Below, piece after piece: positions 6,803 to 32,784 of a stretch of 34,367 bases of DNA. The DNA lies in NCBI GenBank assembly GCA_050742955.1, contig JBOGDY010000002.1:1-34367 (forward strand), given 5' to 3'. The notes below the pieces were generated by a model. It had not been told where the DNA came from and ran no database searches. It worked only from the letters and a program-made list of their open reading frames with translations. The DNA comes from Actinomycetes bacterium (GTDB lineage: Bacteria > Actinomycetota > Actinomycetes > JACCUZ01). Position 1 is the first letter of the stretch; each line of letters begins with the position of its first letter. Made by a program: the position numbers and the translations under genes.

Positions 6803-6845
6803 CGGTGACCAACCCTCGCTTCTGGACGCCGATGCGCGCGGCGGC

Positions 6846-8726: not shown

Positions 8727-8753
8727 GGTAGCGTATGGTCTGATGGTCCTACC
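8727..8753. promoter_or_regulatory. inverted repeat GGTAG-N17-CTACC enclosing a direct repeat ATGGTC-tg-ATGGTC
   Basis: It lies in the 99-bp divergent gap between the ADH-ligKJ operon and the PhtD-like/rpiB pair. It shares the ATGGT core with the other AT-rich boxes, but the architecture differs. Confidence 0.3.
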
Positions 8754-8789
8754 ACGATCGGGTCACCCGAGGGAGCTGAGCCAGGGCAG

Positions 8790-11088: not shown

Positions 11089-11913
11089 TCAGGCCTTGCG
11101 GGTGCCACCCTTGATCTGGCGCGCGGCGCGGACGTCCTCGGCGTAGGCCGTGATGGCGTCGTAGCTGATCTGCGCCACGTTGGCGTAGGTCTCCGGCGGG
11201 TCGTCCAGCGCCGACGCCGCATAGCCTATGGCAGCGTTCGCCATGCGCATCCGACCGTCGAGCCAGGGCCCCCCGCCGAACCCTCCGAGAACCGGGATGG
11301 AAACGGCGCGGGCCACCGCCGCACCGACCACCGGTCCTGAGTTGGTGAAGTTGAGCAGCGAAGCCCCGGCCTCTTCCAACCGCTTGGCTTCGACGACCAT
11401 CTCGTCGAGCATCTCCACCGGCACCTCGGAGTCCGTGCCCGGGTGCGCGCTGTAGGTGACGCCGTAGCGCAGCGCGGTCTGCGGCGTGATCCCGAACTGG
11501 GCGAACACCGGGATGCCTGCTCGGCTGACGGCCGTGACCGCGTCGAGGTGGTCGGAAGCCCCGTCGAGCTTCACCAGGTCCACCCCGGCCTCCTTGACGA
11601 GACGGACGGCGGCTCGCACGGCGCTGCCGGGTCCCTCCTGGAGGGGGCCGAACGGGAAGTCGGCGCTGACGAGCGCCCGGCTCACCCCCCGGCGGACCGC
11701 CTGGGAGACGACGACCATCTGGTCCATCGTCACCTCGAGAGGATTCGCGTGCCCCCAGAGGTTGACGCCGACCGTGTCGCCGACCGAGATGATGTCGACT
11801 CCGACCTTGTCGACGATCCGCGCCATCTGGTAGTCCCAGACGACCACACCGACCACCTTGCGCCCGTCGCGCTTCATCGCCTGAAGCGCCGGCAGCGTGA
11901 CCTTCCCGTCCAT
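11089..11913 (-). CDS. PanB-like protein (ketopantoate hydroxymethyltransferase fold, ICL/PEP-mutase superfamily), probably not canonical PanB
   Basis: 274 aa. VGDTVGV, SADFPFG, VKLDGA and FGITPQT are colinear with E. coli PanB VGDSLGM, ADLPF, VKIEGG and LGLTPQS. The region equivalent to LLVLECVP reads LLNFTNSGP. Confidence 0.72.
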   Translation of the reverse strand: MDGKVTLPALQAMKRDGRKVVGVVVWDYQMARIVDKVGVDIISVGDTVGVNLWGHANPLEVTMDQMVVVSQAVRRGVSRALVSADFPFGPLQEGPGSAVRAAVRLVKEAGVDLVKLDGASDHLDAVTAVSRAGIPVFAQFGITPQTALRYGVTYSAHPGTDSEVPVEMLDEMVVEAKRLEEAGASLLNFTNSGPVVGAAVARAVSIPVLGGFGGGPWLDGRMRMANAAIGYAASALDDPPETYANVAQISYDAITAYAEDVRAARQIKGGTRKA

Positions 11914-11929
11914 CTCCTACGTCCCGCCT

Positions 11930-12454
11930 CTAGGCCCGCAGCGCAGTGAGCACCTCGGACACGTCACGTTCGTCGTGCGTAACGATGAGGACCCGGGCAT
12001 GGGGCCGCAGCGCCGCCACCGCGGCATTGGTGTCGTAGCCGTCGGCGAGCACCAGGCCGGCCGTCATGATGCCCCGCAGCGTGCAGGCATCGCCGATGGC
12101 CGAGGCCGTCGCGGCGCCGTCGTTGGCGGTGGCGACCATGACGGCCACGTCGGCGTCGGTGAGCTGCTCACTCAGTCGCGACTCCTCACCGTCGGCGGTT
12201 GACCGCAGCACGACGTCGCCGAGGCCGCCGTTGCTCTCGGCCGAAGCCGCCGGCGACGTGCACGTGAAGAACCTCGCGCTGGCCCACTCCTGCGCGGCCA
12301 CCCGTCGCACGACGGGCTCCGCCCCCTCGTCCAGAGCCACGACCCGGGTTGCGCGCGACGACGCGATCGGGGCGTTGATCCTGAAGCGCGACTCCGCCGC
12401 GGTGGAGGCCCGGGCACAGCTGTTGAGGAGTATCTGCTGCATGGGCTTGCTCAC
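11930..12454 (-). CDS. hypothetical protein, 174 aa, no confident family assignment
   Basis: GTGA start/stop overlap with the Rieske oxygenase gene (12451-12454). Codon usage is consistent with coding. No TM segment or signal peptide. Weak resemblance to a degenerate nucleotide-binding alpha/beta fold (DADVAVMVATANDGAATASAIGDACTLRGIMTAGLV). Confidence 0.5.
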   Translation of the reverse strand: MSKPMQQILLNSCARASTAAESRFRINAPIASSRATRVVALDEGAEPVVRRVAAQEWASARFFTCTSPAASAESNGGLGDVVLRSTADGEESRLSEQLTDADVAVMVATANDGAATASAIGDACTLRGIMTAGLVLADGYDTNAAVAALRPHARVLIVTHDERDVSEVLTALRA

Positions 12455-13737
12455 ACCGAGGACTGGGGAACGCCGGGCCGTGCGGTCACGGCGTCACGGC
12501 TCGCCTCGAGGAACGACTCCTCCTTGGGCAGCACGATCGCAGCGGAGCGGACCCTGTGGTGCTCAGGGTCAACCCCGGGGGGAGTCACGCCCTCGTCGCG
12601 CAGCGCGAGGGCCGCCTTGCGCAGCTTCTGGCGCGCCTTGATGATGCCGCTGTCTGCGGGGACCAACCGCTCCTTGGTGCGGTCGACGATCGGCCCCATG
12701 CTCTCCTGCAGGGACGCGTCCTGCATCGCGATACCGCGAACACCCGAGTAGTGCTCGCTGAGCTTCTGCGCCTCCCGGTCCATCAGGTAGTCGTTGTCCT
12801 TGTTCTGGACCGGCCGGTAGGTGCCCGGGATGTTCTCGCTGTGCACCCCGAACCCGGCTCTCATGTTCGCCACCTCCTGCTCGGTGAGCGCTCGGACGGG
12901 GTGGTAGTCGAACGTGTAGACCCAGCAGTTCTCGTCGTCGATCGGGACCCACAAGTGCCCATGGACCGGATGGTCCCCACGCGGGGGGACCAGCGTGAAG
13001 CTCGGCATGACCCACGGCGTGATCCGCCAGTAGTACTGGCCCTCCTCGGCGTTGCGTCGGGCACCTACGAACAGTCCGCCGTCGGAGTCAACGACCTCGA
13101 AGAACGGCTTGAGGTCGGACATGTTGTACTCGTTGCCCCTGGAGCCCTTGAACAATGGGTCGCTGGACAGGGCACCCGAGTGCAGCCACGAGACGTGGCT
13201 CGAGTCGATGCCACCCTCCAGCGCCTGCAGCCAGTTGCTCTCCTGCCAGCGCTTGGACGTGTAGGTCTGCTCGGGCGGCACCTGGGCGAACTCGAACTCC
13301 GGAAGCGGCGGCTTCCTCGCCGGGTCGCCGAGGTAGGTCCACAGGATGTCGCCGACCTTGACCAGCGGGTAGGACGTCAGCTTGACGTTCGCGCAGAAGC
13401 TGCTGTTCTCCGGCTCGGACGGGACCTCGAGGCACTGCCCCGTGACGTCGTACTTCCACCCGTGGTAGACGCAGCGCAGGCCGCCTTCCTCGTTGCGGCC
13501 GAACCAGAGGGAGACTCCACGGTGGGCGCAGAACTCGTCGATGAGGCCGTACCGACCGTTGCTGTCGCGGAACGCGACCAGGCGCTCGGAAAGGATCTTG
13601 ACTCGCACCGGCGGACAGTCGTCATCCGGCAGCTCCTCGGCCAGGAGGGCAGGCTGCCAGTACTGGCGAAAGAGGTCGCCCATCGGCGTCCCGGGACCGG
13701 TCTCCGTCAACAGCTCGTTGAGCTCTTGCTTGAGCAT
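12451..13737 (-). CDS. Rieske non-heme iron oxygenase, phthalate-family (class IA-like, alpha-only) catalytic subunit
   Basis: 428 aa from ATG 13737 (SD GGAGGAAAG). Rieske motif CAHRGVSLWFGRNEEGGLRCVYHGWKYD. Mononuclear Fe motif SSHVSWLH. N-terminus ELNELLTETGPGTPMGDLFRQYWQPA is typical of phthalate 4,5-dioxygenase-like proteins. Confidence 0.9.
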   Translation of the reverse strand: MLKQELNELLTETGPGTPMGDLFRQYWQPALLAEELPDDDCPPVRVKILSERLVAFRDSNGRYGLIDEFCAHRGVSLWFGRNEEGGLRCVYHGWKYDVTGQCLEVPSEPENSSFCANVKLTSYPLVKVGDILWTYLGDPARKPPLPEFEFAQVPPEQTYTSKRWQESNWLQALEGGIDSSHVSWLHSGALSSDPLFKGSRGNEYNMSDLKPFFEVVDSDGGLFVGARRNAEEGQYYWRITPWVMPSFTLVPPRGDHPVHGHLWVPIDDENCWVYTFDYHPVRALTEQEVANMRAGFGVHSENIPGTYRPVQNKDNDYLMDREAQKLSEHYSGVRGIAMQDASLQESMGPIVDRTKERLVPADSGIIKARQKLRKAALALRDEGVTPPGVDPEHHRVRSAAIVLPKEESFLEASRDAVTARPGVPQSSV

Positions 13738-13854
13738 CGTGCTTCTTTCCTCCCGCGTCCTGACCAGAGAGTGGAGAGTGGCGACCTTCCTCGATCCGGC
13801 TGACAGGCATCCCGCGCCCGGCACGCCCATCGGATGTGTGTGCCCGCTGAAGTG

Positions 13855-14116: not shown

Positions 14117-15139
14117 ATGGGCAAGAGCGGACGCGTCTTCGTACGAGGCCTGACCTCCGAGACCTACGGCCTCGGCGAGTTCCGACGCCAACAGCTCGAA
14201 GCGCCGCGGGTTCGCGACGACTCCGTGGTGGTCGACGACGCGAAGGTCGGCCACTCCGGCGACAGTGCCCAGTCACGCACCTGGTGGCGGATCGGCCCGG
14301 GTGATGACGACTTCCTCACCCAGACTCTGCAGGTGCACTTCGTGGAGCTGCCACCGCGATCGGCCAACCACGGCCACGGCCACCAGAACGAGGCCGCGTT
14401 CTACATCCTCGAGGGTGCGGGCTACGAGATCCACGACGACCAACGCTACGACTGGGAGAAGGACGACCTGGTCATCGTGCACACCGACTCGGTGCACCGG
14501 CACTTCAACCCGTACGACGAGAAGGCCGTCGCCCTGGTCATGAAGGCCAAGTGCACCTGGATGTTCATGGGCCTGATCCAGCAGGGCCGCAGCGGACCGG
14601 TCGAACGTGAGACCGAGTTCGGCCCACGGGAGGACTGGTCGGCCATCTGGACGCCCAGCGTCGGCGAGCGGAAGAAGGTCGTCAAGCCCGCCGACACGAC
14701 CTGGGAGAGCACCCCGCTCGGGCGGGTCCGGGTCCTGTCCAGCCCCGACCGTGACGACGTCCGCGTCTTCAGCGTCGACGTGTTCGAGCTGGAGATCCCG
14801 GCCGGGAGCCGGTCCGGCAAGCACTGGAAGATGGCCGACGAGGTGCTCTACGCGGTCGACGGCGAGGGCTACTCGCTGCACTGGGAGGTCGAGGCGGAGA
14901 TCGCCGAGAAGTACTACGCGCGCGTCGCCAAGGAGCCCACGCGCCACGAGTTCAAGAAGGGCGACACCATCTACGTGCCGCAGAACACGGTGGCCCAGCA
15001 CTTCGCCGCCGACGGTTCGCCGGTCCGGCTGCTCTCGGCGCAGAACCGTGTCTTCAAGCACCTCGGCTACGACACGGTCCACTACGTCGAGCCGGCCCCG
15101 GACACCGCTGCCGGCACGCTGACGGCCGCGAACGCCTGA
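14117..15139 (+). CDS. bicupin protein, putative metal-dependent dioxygenase (N-terminal cupin intact, C-terminal cupin degenerate)
   Basis: 340 aa. N-domain motif HGHGHQNEAAFYILEGAG ... VHRHFN (HxHx3-4E...H). The C-domain has GKHWKMADEVLYAVDGEG with only one His. SD GAAGAGGAG lies upstream of the ATG. Confidence 0.72.
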   Translation: MGKSGRVFVRGLTSETYGLGEFRRQQLEAPRVRDDSVVVDDAKVGHSGDSAQSRTWWRIGPGDDDFLTQTLQVHFVELPPRSANHGHGHQNEAAFYILEGAGYEIHDDQRYDWEKDDLVIVHTDSVHRHFNPYDEKAVALVMKAKCTWMFMGLIQQGRSGPVERETEFGPREDWSAIWTPSVGERKKVVKPADTTWESTPLGRVRVLSSPDRDDVRVFSVDVFELEIPAGSRSGKHWKMADEVLYAVDGEGYSLHWEVEAEIAEKYYARVAKEPTRHEFKKGDTIYVPQNTVAQHFAADGSPVRLLSAQNRVFKHLGYDTVHYVEPAPDTAAGTLTAANA

Positions 15140-15232
15140 GAGAGGACGCCCTCGCTGCCCCGCCTCAGCCGCCCTCCGCGCGACGTCCTCGCCGCTGCGG
15201 GGGGCGCCTGCGTCTTCTCCTTCTCCCTCGGC

Positions 15233-16366
15233 ATGGCATCCGTGGCGATGCCCCTGCTGGCGTTGCGCAGTGGCTACTCGGGCATAGACGTCGGGCTGCT
15301 CACCGCGGCCTCCGCCCTCGCGCAGATGGCGACCCGCCTCGTGCTGGGCCGAGCGATGCGACTCGTGGGCGACTGGGTTCTGGTGGTGGTGGCGGCTGCA
15401 CTCCTGACCGGCTCCAACGGCCTGCTCGCCACTACCGCCGCAGTGGTGCCGTTCACCGTGGCGGCGATCCTCCAGGGTGTGGCGCGTGCCTGCTTCTGGA
15501 CCGGGAGCCAGACGCATGTCGTGCGCGGGGAGGGCACCGCGGTGAGCGCCCTCGCCCAGGTCAACTTCATCTCCAGCATCGGCCTGCTGGCCGGACCGGC
15601 GGTCGCGGGACTGCTGGCCGAGGCGTCCGTCCAGGTGGCGCTGTCGGTGGCCGCCGTCGCCTCGCTGGTCGCCGTCGCCCCGGCGCTGCTGCTCGACCGG
15701 CTCCCGCCGTTCCAGCCTCCGGCGGAGCGGCCTCCGGGCATGCTCTGGCGGCGCCCCGGCGTCTCGACCGGATGCTGGGTCGGCGCCAGCGCCGGCGCGT
15801 GGCGCGGGCTGGTGAGCTCGTACGTGCCCGTGGCACTGGAGACCGCGCGACAGCCCGGGACGACGACAGGAGCCCTCGTCTCGGTCGCCAACGCGGCGTC
15901 GATGGTCGGTGCGATCGTCGTCGCGAGGGTCCACGGCCCATGGGTACGCCGGTCCCTCGTGCTCGGCTGCCTGCTGGCCGGCCTGGCCTTCTGCGTCTTC
16001 GTCCCGCTGGCGGGGGTGGCGTGGGCGGCCGGCCTGGCTCTGGCCGCGTCAGGACTCGGCGCCGGTGCGCTGCAGTCCGTCGGACCCGCCGTGGCCACCG
16101 AAGCCGTCCATCGCGAGGAGCGGGGTGAGGCGATCGCGGCCGCCGGGACCTTCCGTGCGACCGCGCTCTTCGGCGCACCGCTCGTGGTCGCCTCGGCTCT
16201 CACGGTGATGCCCCTCGCTGCGGCCATGGCGATCGTGGGCGTCCTCATCGCCGCGCCGTCCGTTGCCTCGTCCCGTCGTTCGCTGGGCCATGTCACGGAC
16301 GGTGACGCAGCCGTGAGGGACCCGGCACCCACGGCGGTCCACGGTCAGGGCGGAGAACCCTCGTGA
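15233..16366 (+). CDS. MFS transporter (5-prime end uncertain, may begin upstream at about 15155)
   Basis: Multi-TM Ala/Leu/Gly-rich protein with an MFS loop motif LGRAMRLVGD. The first ATG leaves TM1 truncated. The in-frame upstream codons encode DVLAAAGGACVFSFSLG. Confidence 0.72.
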   Translation: MASVAMPLLALRSGYSGIDVGLLTAASALAQMATRLVLGRAMRLVGDWVLVVVAAALLTGSNGLLATTAAVVPFTVAAILQGVARACFWTGSQTHVVRGEGTAVSALAQVNFISSIGLLAGPAVAGLLAEASVQVALSVAAVASLVAVAPALLLDRLPPFQPPAERPPGMLWRRPGVSTGCWVGASAGAWRGLVSSYVPVALETARQPGTTTGALVSVANAASMVGAIVVARVHGPWVRRSLVLGCLLAGLAFCVFVPLAGVAWAAGLALAASGLGAGALQSVGPAVATEAVHREERGEAIAAAGTFRATALFGAPLVVASALTVMPLAAAMAIVGVLIAAPSVASSRRSLGHVTDGDAAVRDPAPTAVHGQGGEPS

Positions 16367-16854
16367 GGCGGTCGCTCGGCTCCACCTCCACCCGCACCTT
16401 CGCGGTCTGGCCCGCGGCACTCGCCCTGGAGCAGGCGTTCACCCGTCGCCGTCCCCACCTGTCGGGCCTCCCGCTGCTCGCCTCCGGATATGCCCTCTAC
16501 CGACTGGCCGGGGCCCACCGGCTGCCGCGGGCCGGCGGCCCACCGGGCATGACCGGGATGCCGGGGCGGCTGGTCGAGGACGGTCCGTACCGGCTCAGTC
16601 GGAACCCGATGTACACCGGCCACCTGGTCTTCCTGGCCGGCCTCGTGGTCACCACCCGCTCGCCCTGGTCGGCCGGCCTCCTGGCGGCCCACGTGCCGTG
16701 GTTCCGCGCACGGGTGCGACGCGACGAGCAGCGGCTGCGGGAGCGGTTCGGCCCGGCGTACGACCACTACTGCGTGCAGGTGCCGCGGTGGCTCCCCGGA
16801 CCTGTCCGCTTCGCCGCACTTGTGCGGCGGCCCGGCACCTGGCAAAGTGCCTAA
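16363..16854 (+). CDS. ICMT/PEMT-family membrane methyltransferase-like protein
   Basis: 163 aa. GPYRLSRNPMYTGHLVFLAG and RDEQRLRERFGPAYDHYCVQVPRW are typical of the isoprenylcysteine carboxyl / phospholipid methyltransferase family. GTGA overlap with the MFS stop. Confidence 0.68.
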   Translation: MRRSLGSTSTRTFAVWPAALALEQAFTRRRPHLSGLPLLASGYALYRLAGAHRLPRAGGPPGMTGMPGRLVEDGPYRLSRNPMYTGHLVFLAGLVVTTRSPWSAGLLAAHVPWFRARVRRDEQRLRERFGPAYDHYCVQVPRWLPGPVRFAALVRRPGTWQSA

Positions 16855-16868
16855 TGGTCAGTCCATTG
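16852..16868. promoter_or_regulatory. palindromic box TAATGGTCAGTCCATTG abutting the RBS of the bicupin-AAA-ThDP operon
   Basis: AATGG-N5-CCATT has the same arm spacing as the 17-bp dyad family. It overlaps the ICMT stop codon and ends at the SD GGAGGA (16868-16873) of GTG 16877. Confidence 0.4.
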
Positions 16869-16876
16869 GAGGATTC

Positions 16877-17944
16877 GTGAGCACCCGCACCACGACCAAC
16901 GTGACGCACTACCACGTCCAGAAGGGCCGACGCGCGAAGTTCATCGAGGACTGGCGGTCGAACCACCGGGACATCGTGGCCGTCGAGGACGTCGTGATGC
17001 GCGACACGGCTCGGGGCAGCCGCATAGGGGTCTACTGCGGCACCGACGGCGACCGGCCGACCCGCACGATGGACGCCCTCGCCCACGAGTTCGAGCCGGG
17101 CAGCCGCACGACGGTGCACCGGCACTCATGGGACGCGATGGTGTTCGTGGTCGCCGGCTGGGGCTGGACGGAGATCGACGGAGAGCGCGTCGACTGGGGG
17201 CCGGGTGACTCGCTGCACCTGCCGGCGTGGGCCTGGCACCGCTCGGGCAACGACGGCACGACGACGGCCCGCTACCTGACCTTCTCCAGCGAGCCGATGC
17301 TCGACACGATGGGGATGTCCGTCCTCGAGGAGGCGGGCGACACCGAGGTGGCCGAGCTGCCTGCACGGCCGGCGTTCACGTCCGAGCTGCCGGGTGACGA
17401 GCCCTACGCGCGCCGGGTCCGGCGTCTGGGCCGGGAGCAGACAGCGCGCCGCAACGGCCGACTCCACACGTCCTGGGACGACCTCGAGCTGCTCAACACC
17501 CCACGCGGGACACGCACCACCTTCCTGCTCGACCGGGCGATCGGCTACCAGGCATCCGGCATCACCATGGCGATGTTCGAGATCGGTCCCGGGCGTGCGC
17601 AGTCGATGCATCGCCACCCTGGCGAAGCCTGGCTCTATGTCGTGGAGGGCAGCGGTCACAGCTATGTCGGCACCGAGCCCGAGGGTGGGAAGAACCATCC
17701 GTGGAAGAAGGGCGACCTGATCGTCGTCGACCACTTCCTGTGGCATCAGCACTTCAACGACGACCCCGACAGGACCGCCAAGGTGGTCCGGATCCACATG
17801 TTCGACAGCCTTCTGGAGACGATGCGCGTCCTGACCGACCCGCTGGTGCTCTTCGAGGAGCCCCCGGAGCACATCAGGGACCGGCAGGCAGGCGACCCCT
17901 CCACCATCGACTGGCCCGCCCTCGAGCGGCCCACCTGGCCCTGA
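16877..17944 (+). CDS. gentisate 1,2-dioxygenase-family bicupin (ring-cleaving dioxygenase, substrate unknown)
   Basis: 355 aa from GTG 16877. Both cupin domains are intact: VHRHSWDAMVFVVAGWG...LPAWAWHRSGN and MHRHPGEAWLYVVEGSG...FLWHQHFN, which are GDO-like HRH...WH.H.N motifs. Confidence 0.8.
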   Translation: MSTRTTTNVTHYHVQKGRRAKFIEDWRSNHRDIVAVEDVVMRDTARGSRIGVYCGTDGDRPTRTMDALAHEFEPGSRTTVHRHSWDAMVFVVAGWGWTEIDGERVDWGPGDSLHLPAWAWHRSGNDGTTTARYLTFSSEPMLDTMGMSVLEEAGDTEVAELPARPAFTSELPGDEPYARRVRRLGREQTARRNGRLHTSWDDLELLNTPRGTRTTFLLDRAIGYQASGITMAMFEIGPGRAQSMHRHPGEAWLYVVEGSGHSYVGTEPEGGKNHPWKKGDLIVVDHFLWHQHFNDDPDRTAKVVRIHMFDSLLETMRVLTDPLVLFEEPPEHIRDRQAGDPSTIDWPALERPTWP

Positions 17945-17952
17945 CCACCGCA

Positions 17953-18846
17953 GTGGACACCGCCCGGCTGCCTCCCGGCGTGGGGGGACTGCACGTCCTT
18001 CCCGCCGACCACCACGACGGTCCGTGGGACAGCATCATCGTCCCTGCGGGCACCAAGCAGCGGCTGTTGGGGGCTGCCCTGCTGGTGCTGCGGCACGGCC
18101 GTGCCCTCTCCCAGCTGGCCGGGCCGCCGCACGGCCTGGTCGTCCTCGCCGGCCCGCCCGGGACGGGCAAGACCACGCTCTGCCAGGGGCTCGCGCAGGT
18201 GGCCGCCCGGACAGTGGCGCACAAGGGTGCGACGACGTTCGTGGAGATCGACCCGCACGCGTTCCCCAGCGAGATGCTCGGCGAGAGCCAACGCGCCGTC
18301 CGCCGACTCTTCACCGAGACGCTGCCCGAGCTGGCAGCGCGCCGACCGCACACCGTCGTCCTCGTGGACGAGATCGAGGCCCTCGCGGTGCGTCGCAGGA
18401 CCGCCTCCTTCGAGACCAACCCGGTCGACGTGCACCGGGCGACCGACGCGCTGCTGGCCGGTCTGGACCTGTTGCGAGCCTCGAGCCCGAACGTCCTGCT
18501 GCTCGCCACCACGAACTTCGTCGCGGCGGTCGACGAGGCGTTCCTGTCGCGCACCGACCTGGTGCTCACCCTCGACCTGCCGGACGAACAGGCGCTGACA
18601 GCCATCTTCGCGGCGACCCTGCGCGAGCTCGCTGTCCTCTGGCCGGACCTGCGCGAGCTGGCGCTGGACGACTCGCTGCACGCCAAGCTGGCCGCCACCT
18701 GTGTGGGTCTGGACGGTCGCCGCGCGCGCAAGGTGGCTCTGGCCGCGCTGGCGCGCGAGCCACGACTGGCCCAGGACCCGACCCAGCTCAGCGGGGACGA
18801 CCTCCTCGCCGCCGCCGAGGACATGGCGGCGGAGGACCGTCCATGA
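17953..18846 (+). CDS. AAA+ ATPase, Pch2/TRIP13-like core without an N-terminal domain
   Basis: Walker A GPPGTGKT (18151-18174) and Walker B VVLVDEIE (18355-18378). Blocks FVEIDPHAFPSEMLGESQRAVRRLF, NVLLLATTNFVAAVDEAFLSRTDLVLTLDLPD and GLDGRRARKV are present. The start is uncertain (GTG 17953 or 17980, or CTG 17941). ATGA overlap with the next gene. Confidence 0.85.
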   Translation: MDTARLPPGVGGLHVLPADHHDGPWDSIIVPAGTKQRLLGAALLVLRHGRALSQLAGPPHGLVVLAGPPGTGKTTLCQGLAQVAARTVAHKGATTFVEIDPHAFPSEMLGESQRAVRRLFTETLPELAARRPHTVVLVDEIEALAVRRRTASFETNPVDVHRATDALLAGLDLLRASSPNVLLLATTNFVAAVDEAFLSRTDLVLTLDLPDEQALTAIFAATLRELAVLWPDLRELALDDSLHAKLAATCVGLDGRRARKVALAALAREPRLAQDPTQLSGDDLLAAAEDMAAEDRP

Positions 18847-20609
18847 CGGCCGTCGAGGCCGTGGTGCCTGTGCCCCCGGAGTCGTCCGCCGGCTGGGGCA
18901 GCGACCTCGTCGTGGACCTGCTCCGCGACCTCGACGTCCCGTACCTGCCGATGAACCCAGGCTCGTCGTTCCGCGGGCTGCACGACTCGGTGGTCAACCA
19001 CGGCGGCAACCGATGCCCGCAGCTGCTGCTCTGCCTCCATGAGGAGATCGCGGTCTCGCTGGCGCACGGCTGGGCGAAGGCCACCGGCCGTCTCGGCCTC
19101 GCCGCGGTCCACGACCTGGTCGGGCTCATGCACGCGTCCATGGCGGTCTACAACGCCTACTGCGACCGCACTCCCCTCCTGCTCCTGGGCGGGAGCGGGC
19201 CGGTGGACCCGGCGCTGCGCCGTCCGGTGGACTGGACCCACTCCGCCACCACCCAGGCCGAGCTGGTCCGCGACTACGTGGTGTGGGACGGGGAGCCCGC
19301 GACGCCACAGGCGGCGGTCGCGGACCTGGTCCGGGCCCGGCAGAGGGCGATGTCTGCCCCGCGCGGCCCGGCGTACGTCTCCCTGGACGCGGGCCTGCAG
19401 GAGTGCCGGCTCGACGTGCCGGTGCGGCTGCCCCCGGTACACCGTTTCGCACCCGCACCACCGATGGCCCCGAACCCGCAGTCGCTCGACGACGCGGTCA
19501 CCGTCCTGGCATCGGCCGAGCGGGTGGTGGTCGTCGCGGGTCGGGTCGGACTGGGCCCCATGGTGACGGAGCCGTTGGCCGCGGTGGTCGAGACGCTCGG
19601 TGCGGCCTACATGGACGAGCGGAACTGGTCGGTGCTGCCGACCAGGCACCCGCAGAACTGTTCCGGGGACGCCGACCTGCTCGCGGAGGCCGACGTCGTG
19701 CTCGCCGTCGACGTGGTCGACCTGCCGGCGCTGCTACAGCCCAGGAGCCGCAGGCGAGCGCAGGCGCAGCACGACCCGGCCCCGTCGCCCACCGTCGTCG
19801 ACCTCTCGTACGGCGACCTCGGGCTGCGCTCCTGGACCAACGCACACGGCGCGCCGACGCCCCGCGACATCGCGCTCCTCGCGGATCCGGTCGTCGGTCT
19901 CCGCATGCTGGCTGACCTGCTCGCGGACGCCGTGGACCCGACGCGGGCGCAGGCCCGCCGCCGCGCCGTGACCGCCCGGGCGAGTGCCCTGCGGGTCAGT
20001 CAGCGCGCCGCGGTCGATGCCCGGTGGGCCGACCGGCCGATCGCGCCCGCGCGGCTGGTCGCGGAGACCTGGAACGCCGTACGGGAGGTCCCCCACCTGC
20101 TGTGCCTGCGCAACACCCGCACCTGGCCGGAAGGCGTGTGGGAGCTCCCCGGCGCCGGCGGCTACCTGGGGCACTCCGGTGGCGGAGGGGTCGGCTACGG
20201 GCCGGGCGCCCTGGTCGGCGGCGCCCTCGCGGCCCGGGACAGAGGTCAGCTCGGTGTGGGCATCATCGGCGACGGTGACCTGCTCATGGCGGCCGGAGCA
20301 CTGTGGACCGCCGTGCACTACCGCGTGCCCGCCCTGGTGGTGGTGAACGACAACGGCTCGTTCTACAACGACGAACCGCACCAGGCGGCAGTGGCCCGCG
20401 AGCGGGGTCGGCCGGTGGACAACAGCTGGATCGGCATGCGCATCGCGGACCCGCCGGTGGACATCGCGGCCCTGGCCCGCGGTTACGGCTGCTGGGCGGA
20501 GGGCACGGTCGACGACCCGGACGACCTTGCGGCAGCACTTGCCCGCGCCACGGCCGCGGCCGTGCAGGGCGCGACGGCAGTGGTGCACGTCCGGACGGCG
20601 CCGCAGTGA
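18843..20609 (+). CDS. thiamine-diphosphate-dependent enzyme (acetolactate-synthase-like three-domain fold), paralog 1
   Basis: 588 aa. Cofactor-activating Glu in CLHEEIAV. ThDP motif GDGD(20268-20279)-x26-NDN. Divergent N-domain (NPGSSFRGLHDS, HDLVGLMHAS in place of TSGPGATN). Confidence 0.85.
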   Translation: MTAVEAVVPVPPESSAGWGSDLVVDLLRDLDVPYLPMNPGSSFRGLHDSVVNHGGNRCPQLLLCLHEEIAVSLAHGWAKATGRLGLAAVHDLVGLMHASMAVYNAYCDRTPLLLLGGSGPVDPALRRPVDWTHSATTQAELVRDYVVWDGEPATPQAAVADLVRARQRAMSAPRGPAYVSLDAGLQECRLDVPVRLPPVHRFAPAPPMAPNPQSLDDAVTVLASAERVVVVAGRVGLGPMVTEPLAAVVETLGAAYMDERNWSVLPTRHPQNCSGDADLLAEADVVLAVDVVDLPALLQPRSRRRAQAQHDPAPSPTVVDLSYGDLGLRSWTNAHGAPTPRDIALLADPVVGLRMLADLLADAVDPTRAQARRRAVTARASALRVSQRAAVDARWADRPIAPARLVAETWNAVREVPHLLCLRNTRTWPEGVWELPGAGGYLGHSGGGGVGYGPGALVGGALAARDRGQLGVGIIGDGDLLMAAGALWTAVHYRVPALVVVNDNGSFYNDEPHQAAVARERGRPVDNSWIGMRIADPPVDIAALARGYGCWAEGTVDDPDDLAAALARATAAAVQGATAVVHVRTAPQ

Positions 20610-22081
20610 GCGCCCGGACCGAGGTGGCGGCCACGGCCCCCGAGGCCCCGGACCGGTTGATGTACGTCGGCGGCAGATGGGAGCCGGCCGCGGACGGCGC
20701 TCGGGTCCAGTCGGTCGACCCCGCGACCGAGGCCGTCATCGCGACGGTCCCCGAGGCCGGGCCGACGGACGTCGACCGGGCTGTCGGGGCGGCCACCGCG
20801 GCCGCTCCGAGCTGGTGCGACCTCGGCTGGGCGGCCCGGGCGGCGATGCTGCGGCAGCTGGCGGGTCGGATCGAGGAGCATGCCGAGGACCTGGCCCGGC
20901 TGGACGTCCGCGACGGCGGCGCGCCCCTGACGGGCATGCGGGCTGACGTGCACAGCGCGGTCGGTGAGATCCACTACTACGCGGGCATCGCTCCGCAGAC
21001 GGGCGGCAGCACCGGGCCGGTGAGTCCCGAGAGCCTGTCCTACACGCAGCGGGAGCCCTACGGCGTCGTGGGCCGGATCATTCCGTTCAACCACCCGTTC
21101 AAGTTCGCCGCGGCGAAGGTCGCCGCACCCCTTGCCGCCGGCAACGCCGTGGTGCTCAAGCCCGGTGAGCAGACGAGCCTGTCCGCTCTCGAGCTGGCCC
21201 GCCTGGCGCACGACGTCCTGCCCGCCGGCGTGCTCAACGTCGTGACCGGTCGCGGTCCCACGACGGGTGCCGCTCTGGTGTCGCACCCGGGGGTGCCCCG
21301 CATCGCCTTCACCGGCTCGGTCCCCTCCGGCCGCGCCGTCCTGCACGCCGCCGCCGACGAGATCAAGCACGTCTCCCTCGAGCTGGGCGGGAAGAACCCG
21401 ATCATCGTCTTCCCCGACGTCGATGTCGCACGGGCGGCCGGAGCCGCGGTCGCGGCGATGAACATCGCCCGGTGCACGGGACAGTCGTGCGGCTCCACCT
21501 CCCGGCTCTACGTGCATGACGAGGTCTACGACGCCTTCCTGGCCGCGCTCCAGGCCCGGCTCGCCGAGCTGCGCATCGGTGACCCGATGGACGAGCAGAC
21601 GCAGGTCGGCCCACTGGCCTTCGCCGACCACCACCGGCGCGTGACGGGGCACGTGGAGACCGCCCGGGCCGAGGGTGCGACGGTGCTGTACGGAGGCGGG
21701 CGTCCCGCCGGCCTCCCCCGCGGCTTCTACCTCGAGCCCACCGTGCTGACCGACCTCACCGATGACATGACGGTGGTGCGGGAGGAGGTCTTCGGGCCGG
21801 TCATGTCGGTGCTGCGGTGGCGGGACGTGGACGACGTCGTACGCCGGGCCAACGACACGCCGCTCGGGCTCACAGCCAATGTCTGGACCCGCGACCTGTC
21901 GACCGCCCATCGGGTGACGCGCTCGCTGCAGGCCGGCTACGTCTCCGTGAACGGCAGCGGTCGGCGACCGCTCGGCATGCCCTTCGGCGGTTGGAAGCAC
22001 AGTGGTCTCGGCCAGGAGAACGCACTGGCGGAGCTCCAGTCCTACACCAGGGAGAAGTCGGTGACGGTGACCTTGTGGTGA
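20606..22081 (+). CDS. NAD(P)+-dependent aldehyde dehydrogenase
   Basis: 491 aa. ELGGKNP, catalytic Cys in GQSCGSTSR, FTGSVPSGR, and EEVFGPV. GTGA overlaps at both ends. Confidence 0.95.
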   Translation: MSARTEVAATAPEAPDRLMYVGGRWEPAADGARVQSVDPATEAVIATVPEAGPTDVDRAVGAATAAAPSWCDLGWAARAAMLRQLAGRIEEHAEDLARLDVRDGGAPLTGMRADVHSAVGEIHYYAGIAPQTGGSTGPVSPESLSYTQREPYGVVGRIIPFNHPFKFAAAKVAAPLAAGNAVVLKPGEQTSLSALELARLAHDVLPAGVLNVVTGRGPTTGAALVSHPGVPRIAFTGSVPSGRAVLHAAADEIKHVSLELGGKNPIIVFPDVDVARAAGAAVAAMNIARCTGQSCGSTSRLYVHDEVYDAFLAALQARLAELRIGDPMDEQTQVGPLAFADHHRRVTGHVETARAEGATVLYGGGRPAGLPRGFYLEPTVLTDLTDDMTVVREEVFGPVMSVLRWRDVDDVVRRANDTPLGLTANVWTRDLSTAHRVTRSLQAGYVSVNGSGRRPLGMPFGGWKHSGLGQENALAELQSYTREKSVTVTLW

Positions 22082-22713
22082 ACGATGACCCGGCCGCGCA
22101 CGAGGAGCTCCTGGACGCCGACCGCAGCGTGCTCGTGGTGTTCGACATGCTGGAGTGCTACCGGCAGGCGGCCGAGGAGGCTGGCGCCGTCCCTGCGGTT
22201 CAGCGGTTGATCGAGGGCTGCCGACGACACGGGGTCCCGGTCGCGTGGGCCAGGGCCGACCACAGAGCCGACGGTCGTGACTTCGCCCGGACGCTGGCGG
22301 ACGTGGACAACCGGCACCGGCCCTTCGGACCGGACAACCCCCGGCCGACCGGTCCACCGCACGGCTCGGGGTCGCCGCAGTACCGCTCATTGGTCGAGCT
22401 GGGGCAGCGGGACGACGACTACGACGTGCCCAAGCACCGCTGGTCGGCGTTCCACGGCACCCACCTGGACACGTCTCTGCGTGCGCGTGGCATCGACACC
22501 GTGCTGCTGGTGGGCGGCTCCACTCACGTGGGCGTCGCCTCCACCGCCTATGCAGCCCGCGACCTCGACTACCAGGTCGTCGTCGTGTCCGACGGGCTGA
22601 CGGGCCGGCAGCCCCAGCGCGACTTCTTCGTGCAGCAGGTGCTGCCACGGGTCGGCCGCGTCCGCACCGCCGACCAGGTGCTAGCGGCCATGGACAAGGA
22701 AGGTCATCGATGA
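22078..22713 (+). CDS. isochorismatase-family hydrolase lacking the catalytic Cys (EntB/PhzD-like variant)
   Basis: 211 aa. Asp in LVVFDM and Lys in PKHRWSAFHGT are retained. The Cys position reads GGSTHVGVAST (Gly codon at 22531-22533), compare EntB AHIGC. Confidence 0.78.
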   Translation: MNDDPAAHEELLDADRSVLVVFDMLECYRQAAEEAGAVPAVQRLIEGCRRHGVPVAWARADHRADGRDFARTLADVDNRHRPFGPDNPRPTGPPHGSGSPQYRSLVELGQRDDDYDVPKHRWSAFHGTHLDTSLRARGIDTVLLVGGSTHVGVASTAYAARDLDYQVVVVSDGLTGRQPQRDFFVQQVLPRVGRVRTADQVLAAMDKEGHR

Positions 22714-24476
22714 CAGCGGCTTACACGCCGTACGAGGAACCCGCCTGGGGTTCCGACGTCATGGTGGACGTGCTCAGGCAGCTCGGCTTGAGATACGTCA
22801 GCCTCAACCCAGGCTCGTCGTTCCGGGGCCTGCACGACTCGCTGGTGAACTACGGCGCGGACCAGGTCTCGATGATCGAGTGCCCGCACGAGAAGGTCGC
22901 CGTCGGCCTGGCCCACGGCTATGCCAAGGCCAGCGGAGAGCCGATGGCGGTCCTCCTGCACGACCTCGTGGGGCTGCTGCACGGCTCGATGGGCGTCTAC
23001 TACGCCTACATCGACCGCTGCCCGGTGCTCGTGCTCGGGGGGTCCGGACCGGCCGACCACGTGCGCCGCCGGCCCAACATCGACTGGATCCACTCGGCGA
23101 ACGTGCAGGGTGAGGCCGTCCGGGCCTACACGAAGTGGGATCACGAGCCACGCTCCATCGCCTCCGTGCCGACGGTGCTCGCGAGGGCTCACCGGATCGC
23201 ACGGGAGGAGCCCGCGGGGCCGGTCTACGTGGCCCTGGACGCCGGGCTCCAGGAGGATGCGCTCGAGGCTCCGGTCCCCCTCGACGACCTGCCCCGGCTC
23301 GCACGCGAACCCAGCGCGCTGGCACCCGAGGCCACGGCGCTGCGAGACCTGGCCCGTCGACTGTGCACCGCCGAGCGCCCGGTCATGGTGCTCGGCTACC
23401 CCGGTCGGGACCCTGCGGCGTTCGACCAGCTCGTCCAGCTCGCCGAGCTGGTCGGCGTCGGCGCCGTGGACACGCACTGGCGACTGAACTTCCCCAACCG
23501 CCATCCCTTGAACGTGACTGGGACCGAGGCGCTGGAGAACAGCGACTGCGTCCTGTTCGTCGACGTGAAGGACATGGGGAAGGCGACCCAGAGCCTGGAG
23601 TCGACCACACGTCGGATCACCACCCGTCTCGCGCCGGGGACTCAGGTTCTCGACGTCGGGTTCAACGACGTCGGGATCTCGTCATGGAGCGAGGACTACG
23701 CGGAGCTCGTGGCGACCGACCTCCAGGTGACCGCCGACACCTCGGTCGCGCTGCCGATGCTGCTGGCCGAGTGCCGCAGTCTGCTCGCGGACGAGGCATC
23801 GGACCGAGCAGCCGGCCGAGTCGCCTGGCGGGACCGGCTCGCCGGCTGGCACGAGCAGACGTGGAAGGGATGGCAGCGCCGGGCCGAGGACGTCACTGAG
23901 TCCGTACCGGTGTCCACGGCGAGGCTTGCCGCCGATGTCTGGGACGTCGTGCGCGAGCACGACTGGGTGCTCAGCGCAGGGACGGCTTCGGAGTGGGCGC
24001 TGAGACTCTGGGACTTCGACCGCCCCTACCGCCACCCCGGTCGCCAGCTCGGCACGGCCACCCAGATCGGCATCTCCCTCGGTGTCGCGCTCGCGCACAA
24101 GGGCACCGGCCGGGTCGTCGTCGACCTCCAGCCGGACGGCGACCTCATGTTCGACGTGGGGGCCCTGTGGGTCGCGGCCCGCTACGAGCTCCCGCTCCTG
24201 GTGGTGATGTTCAACAACCGGGCGTACTACAACGACTGGGAGCACCAGGAGCGGCTGGCCAGGCAGCGCGGAACCCCGGTGGACAGGGCGCACATCGGCA
24301 TGTCGATCTCCGAACCGGAGCCGGACTTCGCCACCATCGCCGAGGGCTTCGGCTGGTGGGCGGAGGGCCCGGTCACCGACCCCGGGCAGGTCCGTGAGAG
24401 CGTCGCCCGAGCAGCCGAGCACGTGCTCGCGACCGGCCGGCCGGCCCTGGTGGACGTGGTGTGCCAGCCGAAGTGA
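22710..24476 (+). CDS. thiamine-diphosphate-dependent enzyme, paralog 2
   Basis: 588 aa, colinear with 18843-20609 (WGSDVMVDVLRQLGLRYVSLNPGSSFRGLHDS, HDLVGLLHGS). Glu in CPHEKVAV. The ThDP motif is altered to PDGD (24132-24143)-x26-NNR. Confidence 0.85.
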   Translation: MTAAYTPYEEPAWGSDVMVDVLRQLGLRYVSLNPGSSFRGLHDSLVNYGADQVSMIECPHEKVAVGLAHGYAKASGEPMAVLLHDLVGLLHGSMGVYYAYIDRCPVLVLGGSGPADHVRRRPNIDWIHSANVQGEAVRAYTKWDHEPRSIASVPTVLARAHRIAREEPAGPVYVALDAGLQEDALEAPVPLDDLPRLAREPSALAPEATALRDLARRLCTAERPVMVLGYPGRDPAAFDQLVQLAELVGVGAVDTHWRLNFPNRHPLNVTGTEALENSDCVLFVDVKDMGKATQSLESTTRRITTRLAPGTQVLDVGFNDVGISSWSEDYAELVATDLQVTADTSVALPMLLAECRSLLADEASDRAAGRVAWRDRLAGWHEQTWKGWQRRAEDVTESVPVSTARLAADVWDVVREHDWVLSAGTASEWALRLWDFDRPYRHPGRQLGTATQIGISLGVALAHKGTGRVVVDLQPDGDLMFDVGALWVAARYELPLLVVMFNNRAYYNDWEHQERLARQRGTPVDRAHIGMSISEPEPDFATIAEGFGWWAEGPVTDPGQVRESVARAAEHVLATGRPALVDVVCQPK

Positions 24477-25784: not shown

Positions 25785-26936
25785 TCAGCTGATCGGGACG
25801 AGGGACAGCTTGGCGGGATCCATCCGCAGATAGACGGTGGAGCCCTGCTCGATCGACACCGCAGGGTTGCCGCGAGCACGGAGCTCATGTTTCCCGACGT
25901 CCACGACGTGATCCACCGCGTCACCGAGGAAGGCCCGGGTCAGCACCGTCCCCGACCACTCGTTGTTCACCTCGCCGCCGCGTGAGGTGGTGCTGATCTC
26001 CATCGCCTCGGGACGGATCGACACCACGACCTCGGTGCCGGCGGGCATCTGTGCCCCCGAGCTGAGCTCCAGCGAACCGTCTGCCGTGTCGACGCGGTAC
26101 CGCTCGCCGTCCCGAGCCACGACCGTCCCTGCGATGAAGTTGGACGTGCCGATGAACTCTGCGACGAACTTGCAGTTGGGGTTCTCGTAGACGTCGCGGG
26201 GCCGGCCCAGCTGCATCACGTTGCCCTCTTTCATGACCGCGATGGTCGTCGAGAGGGCCAGTGCCTCGATCTGGTCGTGGGTGACGTAGACGGAGGTGAT
26301 CCCGAGGTCACGTTGCAGCCGCTTGAGCTCGTAGCGCAGCGATTCCCGCAGCTTGGCGTCGAGGTTGGACAGCGGTTCGTCCAGCAACAGCAGTGGAGGC
26401 TCGATGACGACGGCCCGGGCGAGGGCGAGGCGTTGCTGCTGGCCACCGGAGAGCTTGGTGGCCTGACGGTCGGCGTAGCCCGCCAGCTCCATGGTCTCCA
26501 GGACCTTCATCACACGCTCGGAGACCTCCCTCTTGCCGAGCCGCTCTCTGCGCTTCTTGACCTGAAGGGGAAACGCGACGTTGTCGAAGACCGACATGTG
26601 CGGCCAGATGGCGTAGGACTGGAAGACCATCCCGAGGCCGCGCTCGTTGGCCGGCACGTTCACCTTGCGCTGACCGTTCCGCGCCGAGAACAAGGGCTTG
26701 TCAGCCAGCGTGATGGCCCCGGCGTCGGGTCGCTCCAGGCCCGCTATGGAACGCAGCGTCGTGGTCTTGCCGCAGCCTGATGGCCCCAGCAGTGTGAAGA
26801 GCTCGCCGTTCTCGACCTCGAACGAAACGTCGTTGACGGCGAAGACGCGCTCAGGCGCCTCGGCTCCGCTCGCCTTGGACCGACGACTGCGACGCTCAGC
26901 GTCAAAGGTCTTCACCAGGTTGTCGATGCGCAGCAT
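25785..26936 (-). CDS. ABC transporter ATP-binding protein (PotA/FbpC/MalK-like, with C-terminal TOBE-like domain)
   Basis: Walker A GPSGCGKTT, signature LSGGQQQR and Walker B LLLLDEPLS. 383 aa. Confidence 0.95.
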   Translation of the reverse strand: MLRIDNLVKTFDAERRSRRSKASGAEAPERVFAVNDVSFEVENGELFTLLGPSGCGKTTTLRSIAGLERPDAGAITLADKPLFSARNGQRKVNVPANERGLGMVFQSYAIWPHMSVFDNVAFPLQVKKRRERLGKREVSERVMKVLETMELAGYADRQATKLSGGQQQRLALARAVVIEPPLLLLDEPLSNLDAKLRESLRYELKRLQRDLGITSVYVTHDQIEALALSTTIAVMKEGNVMQLGRPRDVYENPNCKFVAEFIGTSNFIAGTVVARDGERYRVDTADGSLELSSGAQMPAGTEVVVSIRPEAMEISTTSRGGEVNNEWSGTVLTRAFLGDAVDHVVDVGKHELRARGNPAVSIEQGSTVYLRMDPAKLSLVPIS

Positions 26937-26965
26937 TGCCTCTCCATGGATGTGCGGAGCAGCCG

Positions 26966-28720: not shown

Positions 28721-28774
28721 CTTCCCTCTCCAGGGGGAGCCTGGCCTGTGTCCTCGCTCGCGCACTCTTGGTGT

Positions 28775-28809
28775 CGGTGATACCCGCGGGGTTGGGTGGG
28801 GTACCACCG
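28775..28809 (-). other. intercistronic RNA stem-loop between the SBP and permease genes
   Basis: The minus-strand RNA has CGGUGGUACCC - 13 nt loop - GGGUAUCACCG. That gives 11 bp including one G-U pair, with no U-tract after it. Confidence 0.35.
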
Positions 28810-28812
28810 GCC

Positions 28813-29940: not shown

Positions 29941-29978
29941 GCTGGTCCGTCCCGTGCCTTCGGAAGCGATGTCGGTCA

Positions 29979-31115: not shown

Positions 31116-31120
31116 GAGAG

Positions 31121-32703: not shown

Positions 32704-32744
32704 GAGAGCCTCCTGCCCGAGTGGAGCCGTTTCCAGCCTTCGGG

Positions 32745-32761: not shown

Positions 32762-32784
32762 ACCGAGTCGGTCGAGGGGGTCGC

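Follow-up and report, generated by a model that had tools for sequence, protein, structure and literature searches.

A Trip13/Pch2-type AAA+ ATPase encoded next to a bicupin in catabolic operons of actinomycetes and other bacteria

Trip13/Pch2 has so far been regarded as a HORMA-specific remodeller, acting in the spindle and meiotic checkpoints and in bacterial immunity of the cyclic oligonucleotide-based antiphage signaling system (CBASS) type. The question addressed here is what such a motor does in a metabolic operon. It is raised by a 34,367-nt stretch of DNA (hereafter the window; contig JBOGDY010000002.1 of assembly GCA_050742955.1, from an Actinomycetes bacterium), in which a gene for a Trip13/Pch2-type AAA+ ATPase directly follows a gene for a bicupin (cupB). 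We propose, with a probability of roughly 0.55, that this ATPase is a Trip13-type remodeller with the upstream bicupin as its dedicated client, engaged through the bicupin N-terminal tail, and that it activates or resets the bicupin, possibly at its metal site. The two genes and their relevant elements are given below; the conservation of ATPase motifs refers to an alignment of 32 sequences from several phyla.

16877-17944, plus strand: cupB, a bicupin of 355 aa (Pfam Cupin_2 twice), invariant upstream neighbour of the ATPase
16877-16906, plus strand: N-terminal tail of cupB, (M)STRTTTNVT (alternating T3, T5 and T7), which the ATPase pore is proposed to grip
16907-16963, plus strand: helix alpha-1 of cupB, HYHVQKGRRAKFIEDWRSN (aa 11-29 by DSSP of the AlphaFold model), immediately following the tail
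17606-17758, plus strand: C-terminal cupin metal-binding motifs of cupB, MHRHPGEAW ... VVDHFLWHQHFN (His245, His247, Glu250, His286/290/292)
17953-18846, plus strand: 297-aa AAA+ ATPase of the Trip13/Pch2 type; one AAA+ module, no N-domain
17989-18030, plus strand: N-terminal segment of the ATPase, LHVLPADHHDGPWD; includes H14, H20 and H21, a His cluster specific to the bicupin-linked clade
18151-18174, plus strand: Walker A, GPPGTGKT, aa 67-74, invariant
18262-18294, plus strand: pore loop 1 region, FPSEMLGESQR, aa 104-114
18355-18378, plus strand: Walker B, VVLVDEIE, aa 135-142 (D139, E140); E140 invariant, D139 nearly so
18406-18450, plus strand: pore loop 2 region, SFETNPVDVHRATDA, with His161
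18508-18558, plus strand: sensor 1 (TTN, N188) and second region of homology with a single Arg finger (AFLSRTD, R200)
18706-18732, plus strand: sensor 2 region, GLDGRRARK; G255 and R256 invariant

The codon-position GC content of the ATPase open reading frame (0.79/0.50/0.91) is like that of its neighbours, which marks the frame as a genuine gene on this high-GC actinobacterial contig. It starts with GTG at 17953, 8 nt after the bicupin stop, and ends with TGA at 18844-18846, which overlaps the ATG of a thiamine diphosphate (ThDP) enzyme gene, ThDP1 (ATGA, 18843-18846), just as a preliminary description made from the sequence alone had stated. The record of the source contig gives a 288-aa product (P0509) and thus implies a start at GTG 17980; since an LPxGV segment ahead of residue 10 (LPPGV here) is conserved across the homologs, the start at GTG 17953, which yields 297 aa, is favoured. 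The window ATPase has both Walker motifs, both pore loops, sensor 1, the Arg finger and sensor 2, all of them invariant or conserved to at least 90% in the 32 homologs. Invariant residues include P105, S106, L109, G110, S112 and Q113 of pore loop 1, N156, P157, D159, R162, T164, D165 and A166 of pore loop 2 (H161 is kept in at least 90%), and T186, N188, D194, A196, S199 and R200. All motifs quoted in the preliminary description (GPPGTGKT, VVLVDEIE, PWDSIIVPAGTKQRLL, FVEIDPHAFPSEMLGESQRAVRRLF, NVLLLATTNFVAAVDEAFLSRTDLVLTLDLPD and GLDGRRARKV) were found in the protein, and the colinearity with human TRIP13 that it had described was reproduced in alignments to TRIP13 and to Caenorhabditis elegans PCH-2. 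Judged by these intact catalytic motifs, the protein is probably an active enzyme.

Several comparisons place the ATPase in the Pch2/TRIP13 clade of AAA+ ATPases, which confirms the assignment proposed earlier. The PADLOC model of TRIP13 (PDLC00915) matches it over profile positions 7-294 of 302 (E=5.6e-93, 309.6 bits), and a phmmer search against the PDB returned PCH-2 as the best match (1.7e-28), followed by TRIP13 (7e-26) and Cdc48 (2e-25). With a family profile built from 32 homologs, TRIP13 (2e-43) was ahead of Cdc48 (1.6e-37); the lead of TRIP13 over Cdc48, modest when the sequence is searched alone, becomes clear with the profile and with the fold. When the AlphaFold model of the ATPase (predicted local distance difference test score, pLDDT, 92.3) was searched with Foldseek, the 15 best matches were all PCH-2, E. 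coli MS115-1 Trip13 or human TRIP13, with no rival AAA+ clade among them, and the E. coli CBASS Trip13 structure 6p8v aligned over the whole chain of ~300 residues with TM-scores of 0.73/0.72. Pfam assigned only the generic AAA family. The PAN, CDC48, IteA, Mpa, CdvC, FtsH and CbbX clades were considered and rejected, because their NCBIfam scores were far under the cut-offs; the CbbX model TIGR02880, for example, gave E=0.0071 and 15.6 bits against a cut-off of 459, with a match confined to the Walker A region.

The absence of an N-terminal domain had been presented as a peculiarity of this protein. The absence itself was borne out: the ATPase aligns to TRIP13 from approximately residue 123, in the linker after the eukaryotic N-domain, and ~65 aa precede Walker A. 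It is no peculiarity, in that genuine CBASS Trip13 proteins lack this domain as well: the PADLOC model has 302 positions, CBASS homologs on plasmids have 268-311 aa, so that a length of ~270-310 aa is usual, and the E. coli Trip13 chains in 6p8v have ~300 residues and are aligned over their full length. The lack of an N-domain is a trait of bacterial Trip13 and is no argument against membership in the bacterial branch.

Is the locus then a type III CBASS operon? For comparison, we used ATPase homologs found by tblastn against plasmids, in verified type III CBASS operons, whose Trip13 proteins are ~43-45% identical to the window ATPase. In these plasmid loci the AAA gene is followed by two small genes, a gene annotated as 'CBASS oligonucleotide cyclase' and an effector gene, with ImmA/IrrE and helix-turn-helix regulators nearby. 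In PADLOC, the small genes matched HORMA (1e-68 to 8e-85) and the ATPases matched TRIP13 at 353-475 bits (PDLC00915), and two of the loci (L085 and L087) served as the positive control for the HORMA search. HORMA and CD-NTase sequences from three verified CBASS operons (L085-L087) were then compared by tblastn and small hidden Markov models with the window and with 1.6 Mb of related loci, and gave nothing above noise (best E=0.038). No HORMA, CD-NTase or effector was detected when cupB and nine further window proteins were scanned with PADLOC, and Pfam annotation of the whole window detected no CD-NTase. Those neighbours for which Pfam or NCBIfam gave a match encode transporters and catabolic enzymes, with no effector among them. 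Accordingly, the window locus lacks all three hallmarks of type III CBASS, namely CD-NTase, HORMA and effector. The preliminary description had found none of these near the ATPase, which holds for the window and for the ~1.6 Mb of related loci alike; the screen of the operon proteins for cryptic HORMA folds that it had proposed was negative in PADLOC, and cupB folds as a bicupin.

It is still conceivable that the locus represents a cryptic signalling or defence module, in which the bicupin replaces HORMA as the sensor that is reset by the ATPase, or a decaying CBASS remnant. The closest characterised relatives of the ATPase are indeed CBASS Trip13 proteins, and the bicupin carries a HORMA-like tail pattern (see below). 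We nevertheless regard this explanation as very unlikely, given that the CBASS partners are missing from the window and from 1.6 Mb of related loci, the consistently catabolic and transport-related neighbours within a single coupled operon, the lack of mobile-element or defence-island hallmarks, the conservation of the catalytic motifs across phyla, and a bicupin that keeps a complete metal site of the catalytic type.

If HORMA is not the partner, which protein is? One genome per species was scanned, which yielded 80 loci, mostly from Actinomycetota and two from Burkholderiales, with ATPase homologs 61-77% identical to the window protein; the analysis covers ~20 kb per genome. In all 79 loci with enough upstream DNA, cupB lies directly upstream of the ATPase gene on the same strand. 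The preliminary description had suggested that either the ThDP enzyme pair or the bicupin might be the partner, and only the second of these guesses stood. An activase or assembly factor for the ThDP pair would be suggested by the ATGA overlap with ThDP1 in the window and by the position of ThDP1 directly after the ATPase gene in 18 of the 68 loci with at least 6 kb of downstream DNA (as in L001-L004). Any ThDP gene at all, however, is found in just 23 of these 68 loci, and the Streptomyces, Mycobacterium and Amycolatopsis versions of the locus have none; the gene after the ATPase is elsewhere a hydrolase, cupA, MFS_3 or another gene. The overlap in the window is therefore misleading as a guide to the partner, and the distribution of the genes largely excludes the ThDP enzymes in this role, making this the least probable of the explanations considered.

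The same pairing was observed far outside the actinomycetes. Clustering at 50% identity leaves 133 representatives of the family in the library searched (E<=1e-30). Distant gene contexts were found by way of the nearest outgroups of the actinobacterial clade, a profile search and contig look-ups; a search for outgroup contexts in viral contigs found none. The nine contexts obtained belong to Chloroflexota-like, Usitatibacter-like and Roseovarius-like organisms and to unassigned metagenome contigs (Chloroflexota, Proteobacteria). Every one of them has a bicupin of 343-366 aa directly upstream of the ATPase, often with an ATGA or TGATG overlap, and none contains a ThDP gene. One locus (L089) was examined as a bicupin-less exception and was rejected as such, since tblastn revealed a frameshifted cupB directly upstream in this nanopore assembly. 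In a neighbor-joining tree of 45 taxa, the 21 ATPases with a verified bicupin formed one split (bootstrap 90/100), which excludes all verified CBASS Trip13 proteins as well as the CBASS-like and eukaryote-like representatives. From these sequences, the ATPase-bicupin pairing looks like a single, old recruitment. These homologs adjoin a bicupin; had the homologs always adjoined HORMA or CD-NTase genes, the window copy would have been taken for a relic. The arrangement recurs in at least 80 species and the catalytic motifs are intact across phyla, so that the ATPase gene is not a relic.

The partner itself is poorly described by its public label. The AlphaFold model of cupB (pLDDT 79.7) consists of a coil (residues 1-10), a helix (residues 11-29) and two cupin barrels. 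Foldseek matched it best to gentisate and salicylate 1,2-dioxygenases (TM-score ~0.52, 17-18% identity; 3bu7, 3nl1 and 2phd at the top), with further matches to MncA (2vqa, rank 8) and oxalate decarboxylase, all at TM-scores of ~0.5 and 13-19% identity. It reached 71 bits with the NCBIfam model MabB (cut-off 650), and its score with the gentisate dioxygenase model is similarly low (see below). By these comparisons, cupB is a divergent and distant relative of the gentisate-dioxygenase-like bicupins, for which the label 'gentisate 1,2-dioxygenase' used in public records appears unjustified. The protein is 74-85% identical across actinomycetes and nearly always exactly 355 aa long, and is thereby more conserved than the ATPase (61-77%). 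The C-terminal barrel has the full His/His/Glu/His motif in all lineages, and the residues of its metal motifs are invariant in 22 close homologs and 8 divergent partner bicupins. In some lineages the motif of the N-terminal cupin has partly degenerated, and RHSWD and GNDG alone are kept.

How might a Trip13-type motor recognize such a protein? The structure of the E. coli CdnC:HORMA:Trip13 complex shows the HORMA N-terminus in the Trip13 pore with a two-residue periodicity, and a ladder formed by His173 of pore loop 2 makes hydrogen bonds to every second Ser/Thr of the HORMA tail (Ye et al., bioRxiv 10.1101/694695). HORMA N-termini are conserved with the same two-residue periodicity into helix alpha-A, and deletion of the tail abolishes regulation (bioRxiv 10.1101/694695). 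The HORMA proteins next to the closest CBASS relatives of our ATPase begin MTTVAAYSYTHSVTY and MSTSTSTTTYTRTHTATH. A similar pattern was found at the N-terminus of cupB, for which the consensus is M-(S/T)-(T/S)-(R/K)-T-T-T-x-(V/T)-(T/S)-H-Y-H-V-Q-K-x-R-R-A-x-F. When the sequences are anchored on the HY motif, position -8 is Ser or Thr in 108 of 116 sequences, position -6 is Thr in 115 and position -4 is Thr in all 116. Partner bicupins at only ~40-60% identity keep T5, T7, H11, Q15, R18 and R19 (with tails such as TKTQT, TKTKT and TRTQT). Invariant columns make up 30% of aa 1-20, compared with 10% of aa 21-60 and 21% of the whole protein. Residues 1-10 are predicted to be coil or disordered, with low pLDDT, and the motif H-Y-x-V-Q-K-x-R-R-A-x-F of the following helix alpha-1 is invariant or nearly so; the geometry of a free tail followed by a helix is shared with the CBASS HORMA client. 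Moreover, the window ATPase retains the His of pore loop 2 (NPVDVH161RATDA). On the basis of the tail pattern, the retained His and the tail-helix geometry, we infer by analogy that the ATPase threads the N-terminus of cupB.

This tail was absent from two other bicupins of the neighbourhood, namely bicupin A (cupA) of the window and one representative of a third bicupin family. In some clusters, a second cupB paralog (70-72% identity) lies ~5 kb downstream without an ATPase gene of its own (L023:15169-16299 and L032, ~15300-16360). The paralog in L023 keeps the Thr-ladder tail (MSTRTATSVTHYHVQK), and the N-terminus of the L032 copy was not recovered. One ATPase may serve two cupB clients in these organisms.

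A further feature of the bicupin-linked ATPases is their richness in His. At least two His residues within eight residues of the N-terminal region were found in 233 of 234 bicupin-linked ATPases, compared with 4 of 28 CBASS-like representatives, none of which (0/28) has three or more His in such a cluster. The cluster reads LPADHHDGPWD in the window ATPase and GPHDHN, HGHGHHH or HLHAHSHSHGH elsewhere, and it falls in the segment that aligns to the linker following the N-terminal domain of TRIP13. In addition, 35 of 115 members of the wider clade have a His-rich C-terminal tail (e.g. HDHDHGHAPHRHTHTH), and Usitatibacter-like ATPases (L091:6001-7029, P0361; P0334) have a His-rich C-terminal extension of ~40 aa, HDHDHGHAPHRHTHTHQHDDD. 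In L091, a gene for a NicO nickel/cobalt transporter is located beside the pair, two genes upstream of the bicupin. These patches suggest that the ATPase may also handle a metal ion.

Taken together, a dedicated bicupin remodeller acting through the N-terminal tail is likely, as judged from sequence conservation and from analogy with CBASS, and a metal-specific purpose is plausible. The ATPase would assemble as a hexamer, as expected from its homology with CBASS Trip13, and bind cupB physically. Its pore loops would grip the free N-terminal tail of cupB, with His161 reading the alternating Thr residues 3, 5 and 7. A few ATP-driven translocation steps would then extract the tail and helix alpha-1 (aa 11-29), which would be the first element to unfold on pulling of the tail, and leave the bicupin partly opened. 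The purpose may be to open a kinetically closed cupin metal site, allowing loading or exchange of the correct metal or the release of an oxidised metal or dead-end ligand; the reopened barrel might also permit metal repair in a manner similar to Rubisco activase, and the clade-specific His-rich patches might let the ATPase handle the metal ion too. The metal site of a cupin can be fixed at folding, as Tottey and co-workers reportedly found for MncA in 2008. Rubisco activases pull a terminal tail of their enzyme to reopen the active site, and the analogy with our ATPase seems reasonable.

The same pairing and tail would fit equally well with an off-switch, in which the ATPase disassembles or inactivates the bicupin, or for example a cupA/cupB hetero-oligomer, as post-translational control of the pathway without any role for metal. 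In CBASS, Trip13 itself regulates negatively, by taking apart the active HORMA:CD-NTase complex, and cupA co-occurs in 31 of 57 full loci. We consider this unlikely, though it is the most serious of the rivals: it leaves the clade-specific His-rich patches unexplained, cupA is missing from many loci, and the cell would seem to waste ATP by inactivating a catabolic enzyme whose gene is co-transcribed with, and translationally coupled to, that of the ATPase. The ATPase could also be an unfoldase that delivers the bicupin to a protease (the proteasome, ClpP or an FtsH-type enzyme) for regulated turnover. In favour of this, the protein is a member of the classical AAA clade, its next-best profile matches are proteasomal ATPases and Cdc48, and an N-terminal degron-like handle is common for such machines. 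However, no protease gene is linked to the pair in any locus, many of the host phyla have no proteasome, and Trip13-type enzymes are known to remodel their client to a limited extent and to let it go after a few steps. An HbYX-type ending is the motif with which such ATPases dock to the proteasome, and the C-terminus of the window ATPase (…AAEDMAAEDRP) does not have it. Delivery to a protease is therefore quite improbable.

Several observations count against the remodeller proposal and should be kept in mind. The tail resemblance is a pattern match, for which a phosphorylation or FHA-binding site or a role in oligomerisation is also conceivable, and pore loop 1 is unlike that of CBASS Trip13, such that the grip on the substrate may differ. 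The His patches vary in position and may be incidental, and the adjacency of NicO was seen once. With the NCBIfam gentisate dioxygenase model TIGR02272, cupB scores 54.1 bits, far short of the cut-off of 442. The tree was a neighbor-joining tree only, with limited sampling, and is in effect unrooted. Finally, the HORMA search reached ~20 kb per genome, and a HORMA gene may be located elsewhere in these genomes.

The genomic setting of the pair was annotated with Pfam and NCBIfam and is in agreement with the earlier view of a translationally coupled metabolic operon, that is, a series of genes on the same strand with stop/start overlaps. The operon around the pair contains the following additional genes, which vary between lineages and lie outside the invariant core.

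14117-24476, plus strand: the operon as a whole
14117-15139, plus strand: bicupin A (cupA)
15233-16366, plus strand: MFS transporter
16363-16854, plus strand: PEMT/ICMT-like protein
18843-20609, plus strand: ThDP enzyme ThDP1
20606-22081, plus strand: aldehyde dehydrogenase (ALDH)
22078-22713, plus strand: isochorismatase-like hydrolase
22710-24476, plus strand: ThDP enzyme ThDP2

Overlaps of the ATGA or GTGA type were found at 16363, 18843, 20606, 22078 and 22710, corresponding to the junctions MFS/PEMT, ATPase/ThDP1, ThDP1/ALDH, ALDH/hydrolase and hydrolase/ThDP2, and the remaining junctions have short gaps. Beyond the operon, nearly the whole window is a conserved catabolic supercluster common to many actinomycetes, with the features listed here.

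548-1876, minus strand: Lyase_1 family protein, possibly a carboxymuconate cycloisomerase (left end of the window)
2243-2962, minus strand: protocatechuate 3,4-dioxygenase beta-subunit-like protein (left end of the window)
3178-3495: 2Fe-2S ferredoxin
3465-4736: ferredoxin reductase
4789-5778, minus strand: NMT1-like protein
5783-6838: Amidohydro_2 protein
6849-7535: RraA-like protein
7587-8690: zinc alcohol dehydrogenase (Zn-ADH)
8736-9686, plus strand: NMT1-like protein
11104-11928: PanB-like protein
12454-13761: Rieske/LigXa-like oxygenase
25794-31160, minus strand: FbpABC/ThiBPQ-like ABC importer, with a TOBE_2 ATPase, a fused double permease of ~630 aa and two paralogous SBP_bac_6-type binding proteins
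31888-34020, plus strand: second MFS_3 transporter, a stop-to-stop open frame with a 710-aa translation and an MFS domain from residue ~317

The genes at the left end suggest a link of the cluster to aromatic catabolism of the beta-ketoadipate type. Among the 80 related loci, the importer ATPase was present in 51, the permease in 45 and the binding protein in 44, and similar transporters occur in loci of distant lineages (L088, L092 and L093). This importer may carry the pathway substrate or a metal. The late onset of the MFS domain in the MFS_3 frame would mean that translation begins further downstream or that the protein has an N-terminal region not covered by annotation. A protein of the EutA family (PF06277, E=5.6e-106), the family of the ethanolamine-ammonia-lyase reactivase, was observed in 27 of the 80 related loci (e.g. 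L079:507-2156, L044:6596-8653 and L054:7154-8902), and is absent from the window. Its gene lies directly upstream of cupB in several loci and near cupins in L091 and L094, and the protein has a His-rich N-terminal extension (HADGDSHDHG...DHDHIHDDE). It may represent a second 'reactivase-like' ATPase in these clusters.

The ATPase represents a new branch within an established family. The system that its gene forms with the bicupin gene appears to be undescribed. Full-text literature searches returned no paper that links Trip13/Pch2 to cupins or dioxygenases, nor one on AAA+, cupins and metallochaperones together. To our knowledge, no characterised bicupin has a dedicated AAA+ partner. A large, monophyletic, bicupin-locked branch in catabolic operons would break the picture of one family with one client, and would illustrate a shift of a motor between defence or signalling and metabolism. 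It would also offer a simple bacterial system for testing how the Trip13 pore recognizes a tail of alternating Ser/Thr. A wider claim, namely that Trip13/Pch2 has a second, non-HORMA class of clients, in a clade of hundreds of species (Actinomycetota, Chloroflexota and Proteobacteria) that was recruited once to a bicupin and acts as an ATP-driven activase of its metal site, is put forward tentatively and is, as a whole, rather doubtful. If true, it would be the first AAA+ system for 'metal-site resetting' of a cupin enzyme and would provide a portable Ser/Thr-ladder tag for Trip13-type motors; the activation of a metal site would moreover define a new class of enzyme activases and answer how cupin metal sites fixed at folding may be corrected. 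There is also a practical consequence for annotation. Public records label the ATPases as 'pachytene checkpoint protein 2' (JGI records), '26S proteasome regulatory subunit' or 'SpoVK/Ycf46/Vps4', and PADLOC TRIP13 matches at ~300 bits without a CBASS context can mislead the annotation of defence systems and of homology.

Compared with known systems, cupB shares the two-cupin architecture and the His-based metal motifs with gentisate and salicylate 1,2-dioxygenases and MncA, and differs from them in its Thr-ladder N-terminal tail, its WP..RP C-terminus and the fully conserved metal site in its C-terminal barrel. Like the Rubisco activases CbbX and Rca, the ATPase is an AAA+ motor that is encoded with, and appears to be dedicated to, one metabolic enzyme. 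The likeness is one of functional analogy only, as the two differ in AAA+ subclade and in the fold of the client, and the ATPase is not a member of CbbX. The eukaryotic Pch2/TRIP13 proteins include its best solved relatives (4xgu, 5vq9 and 6f0x; TM-scores 0.7-0.78) and have colinear motif blocks, in which GLSGRVLRKL of TRIP13 aligns with the sensor 2 region GLDGRRARK of the window ATPase. In contrast to them, the bacterial protein has no N-terminal domain for recognition of substrate or adapter, no HORMA client and no p31comet-like adapter, and the identity is only ~24-28%.

The closest known system is the CBASS Trip13 of the two-HORMA class, on plasmids of Polaromonas JS666, Rhodococcus opacus and Rhizobium leguminosarum. 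The window ATPase resembles type III CBASS Trip13 (Cap6) in its length of ~300 aa, the full-length match to PDLC00915 and the same layout of Walker motifs, sensors and Arg finger; the His of the DxHRATDA segment in pore loop 2 is common to both, and in both cases the neighbouring client gene encodes an N-terminal tail rich in alternating Ser/Thr. On the other hand, the bicupin-linked ATPases score 285-322 bits on PDLC00915 (353-475 for CBASS), and pore loop 1 reads PSEMLGESQ here and SSAMGKTQ or similar in CBASS, with the signatures PS(E/D)(M/L)LGESQ for the bicupin-linked proteins and (T/A)S(S/A)xxG(K/R/Q)(S/T)Q for their CBASS relatives. The client gene lies upstream in our system, whereas the HORMA genes lie downstream in these CBASS operons. 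A 355-aa bicupin takes the place of HORMA, and no CD-NTase, effector or CapH/CapP regulator accompanies it. CBASS Trip13 is found in defence islands, while the bicupin-linked ATPases reside in catabolic operons and constitute a separate monophyletic clade with additional His-rich patches.

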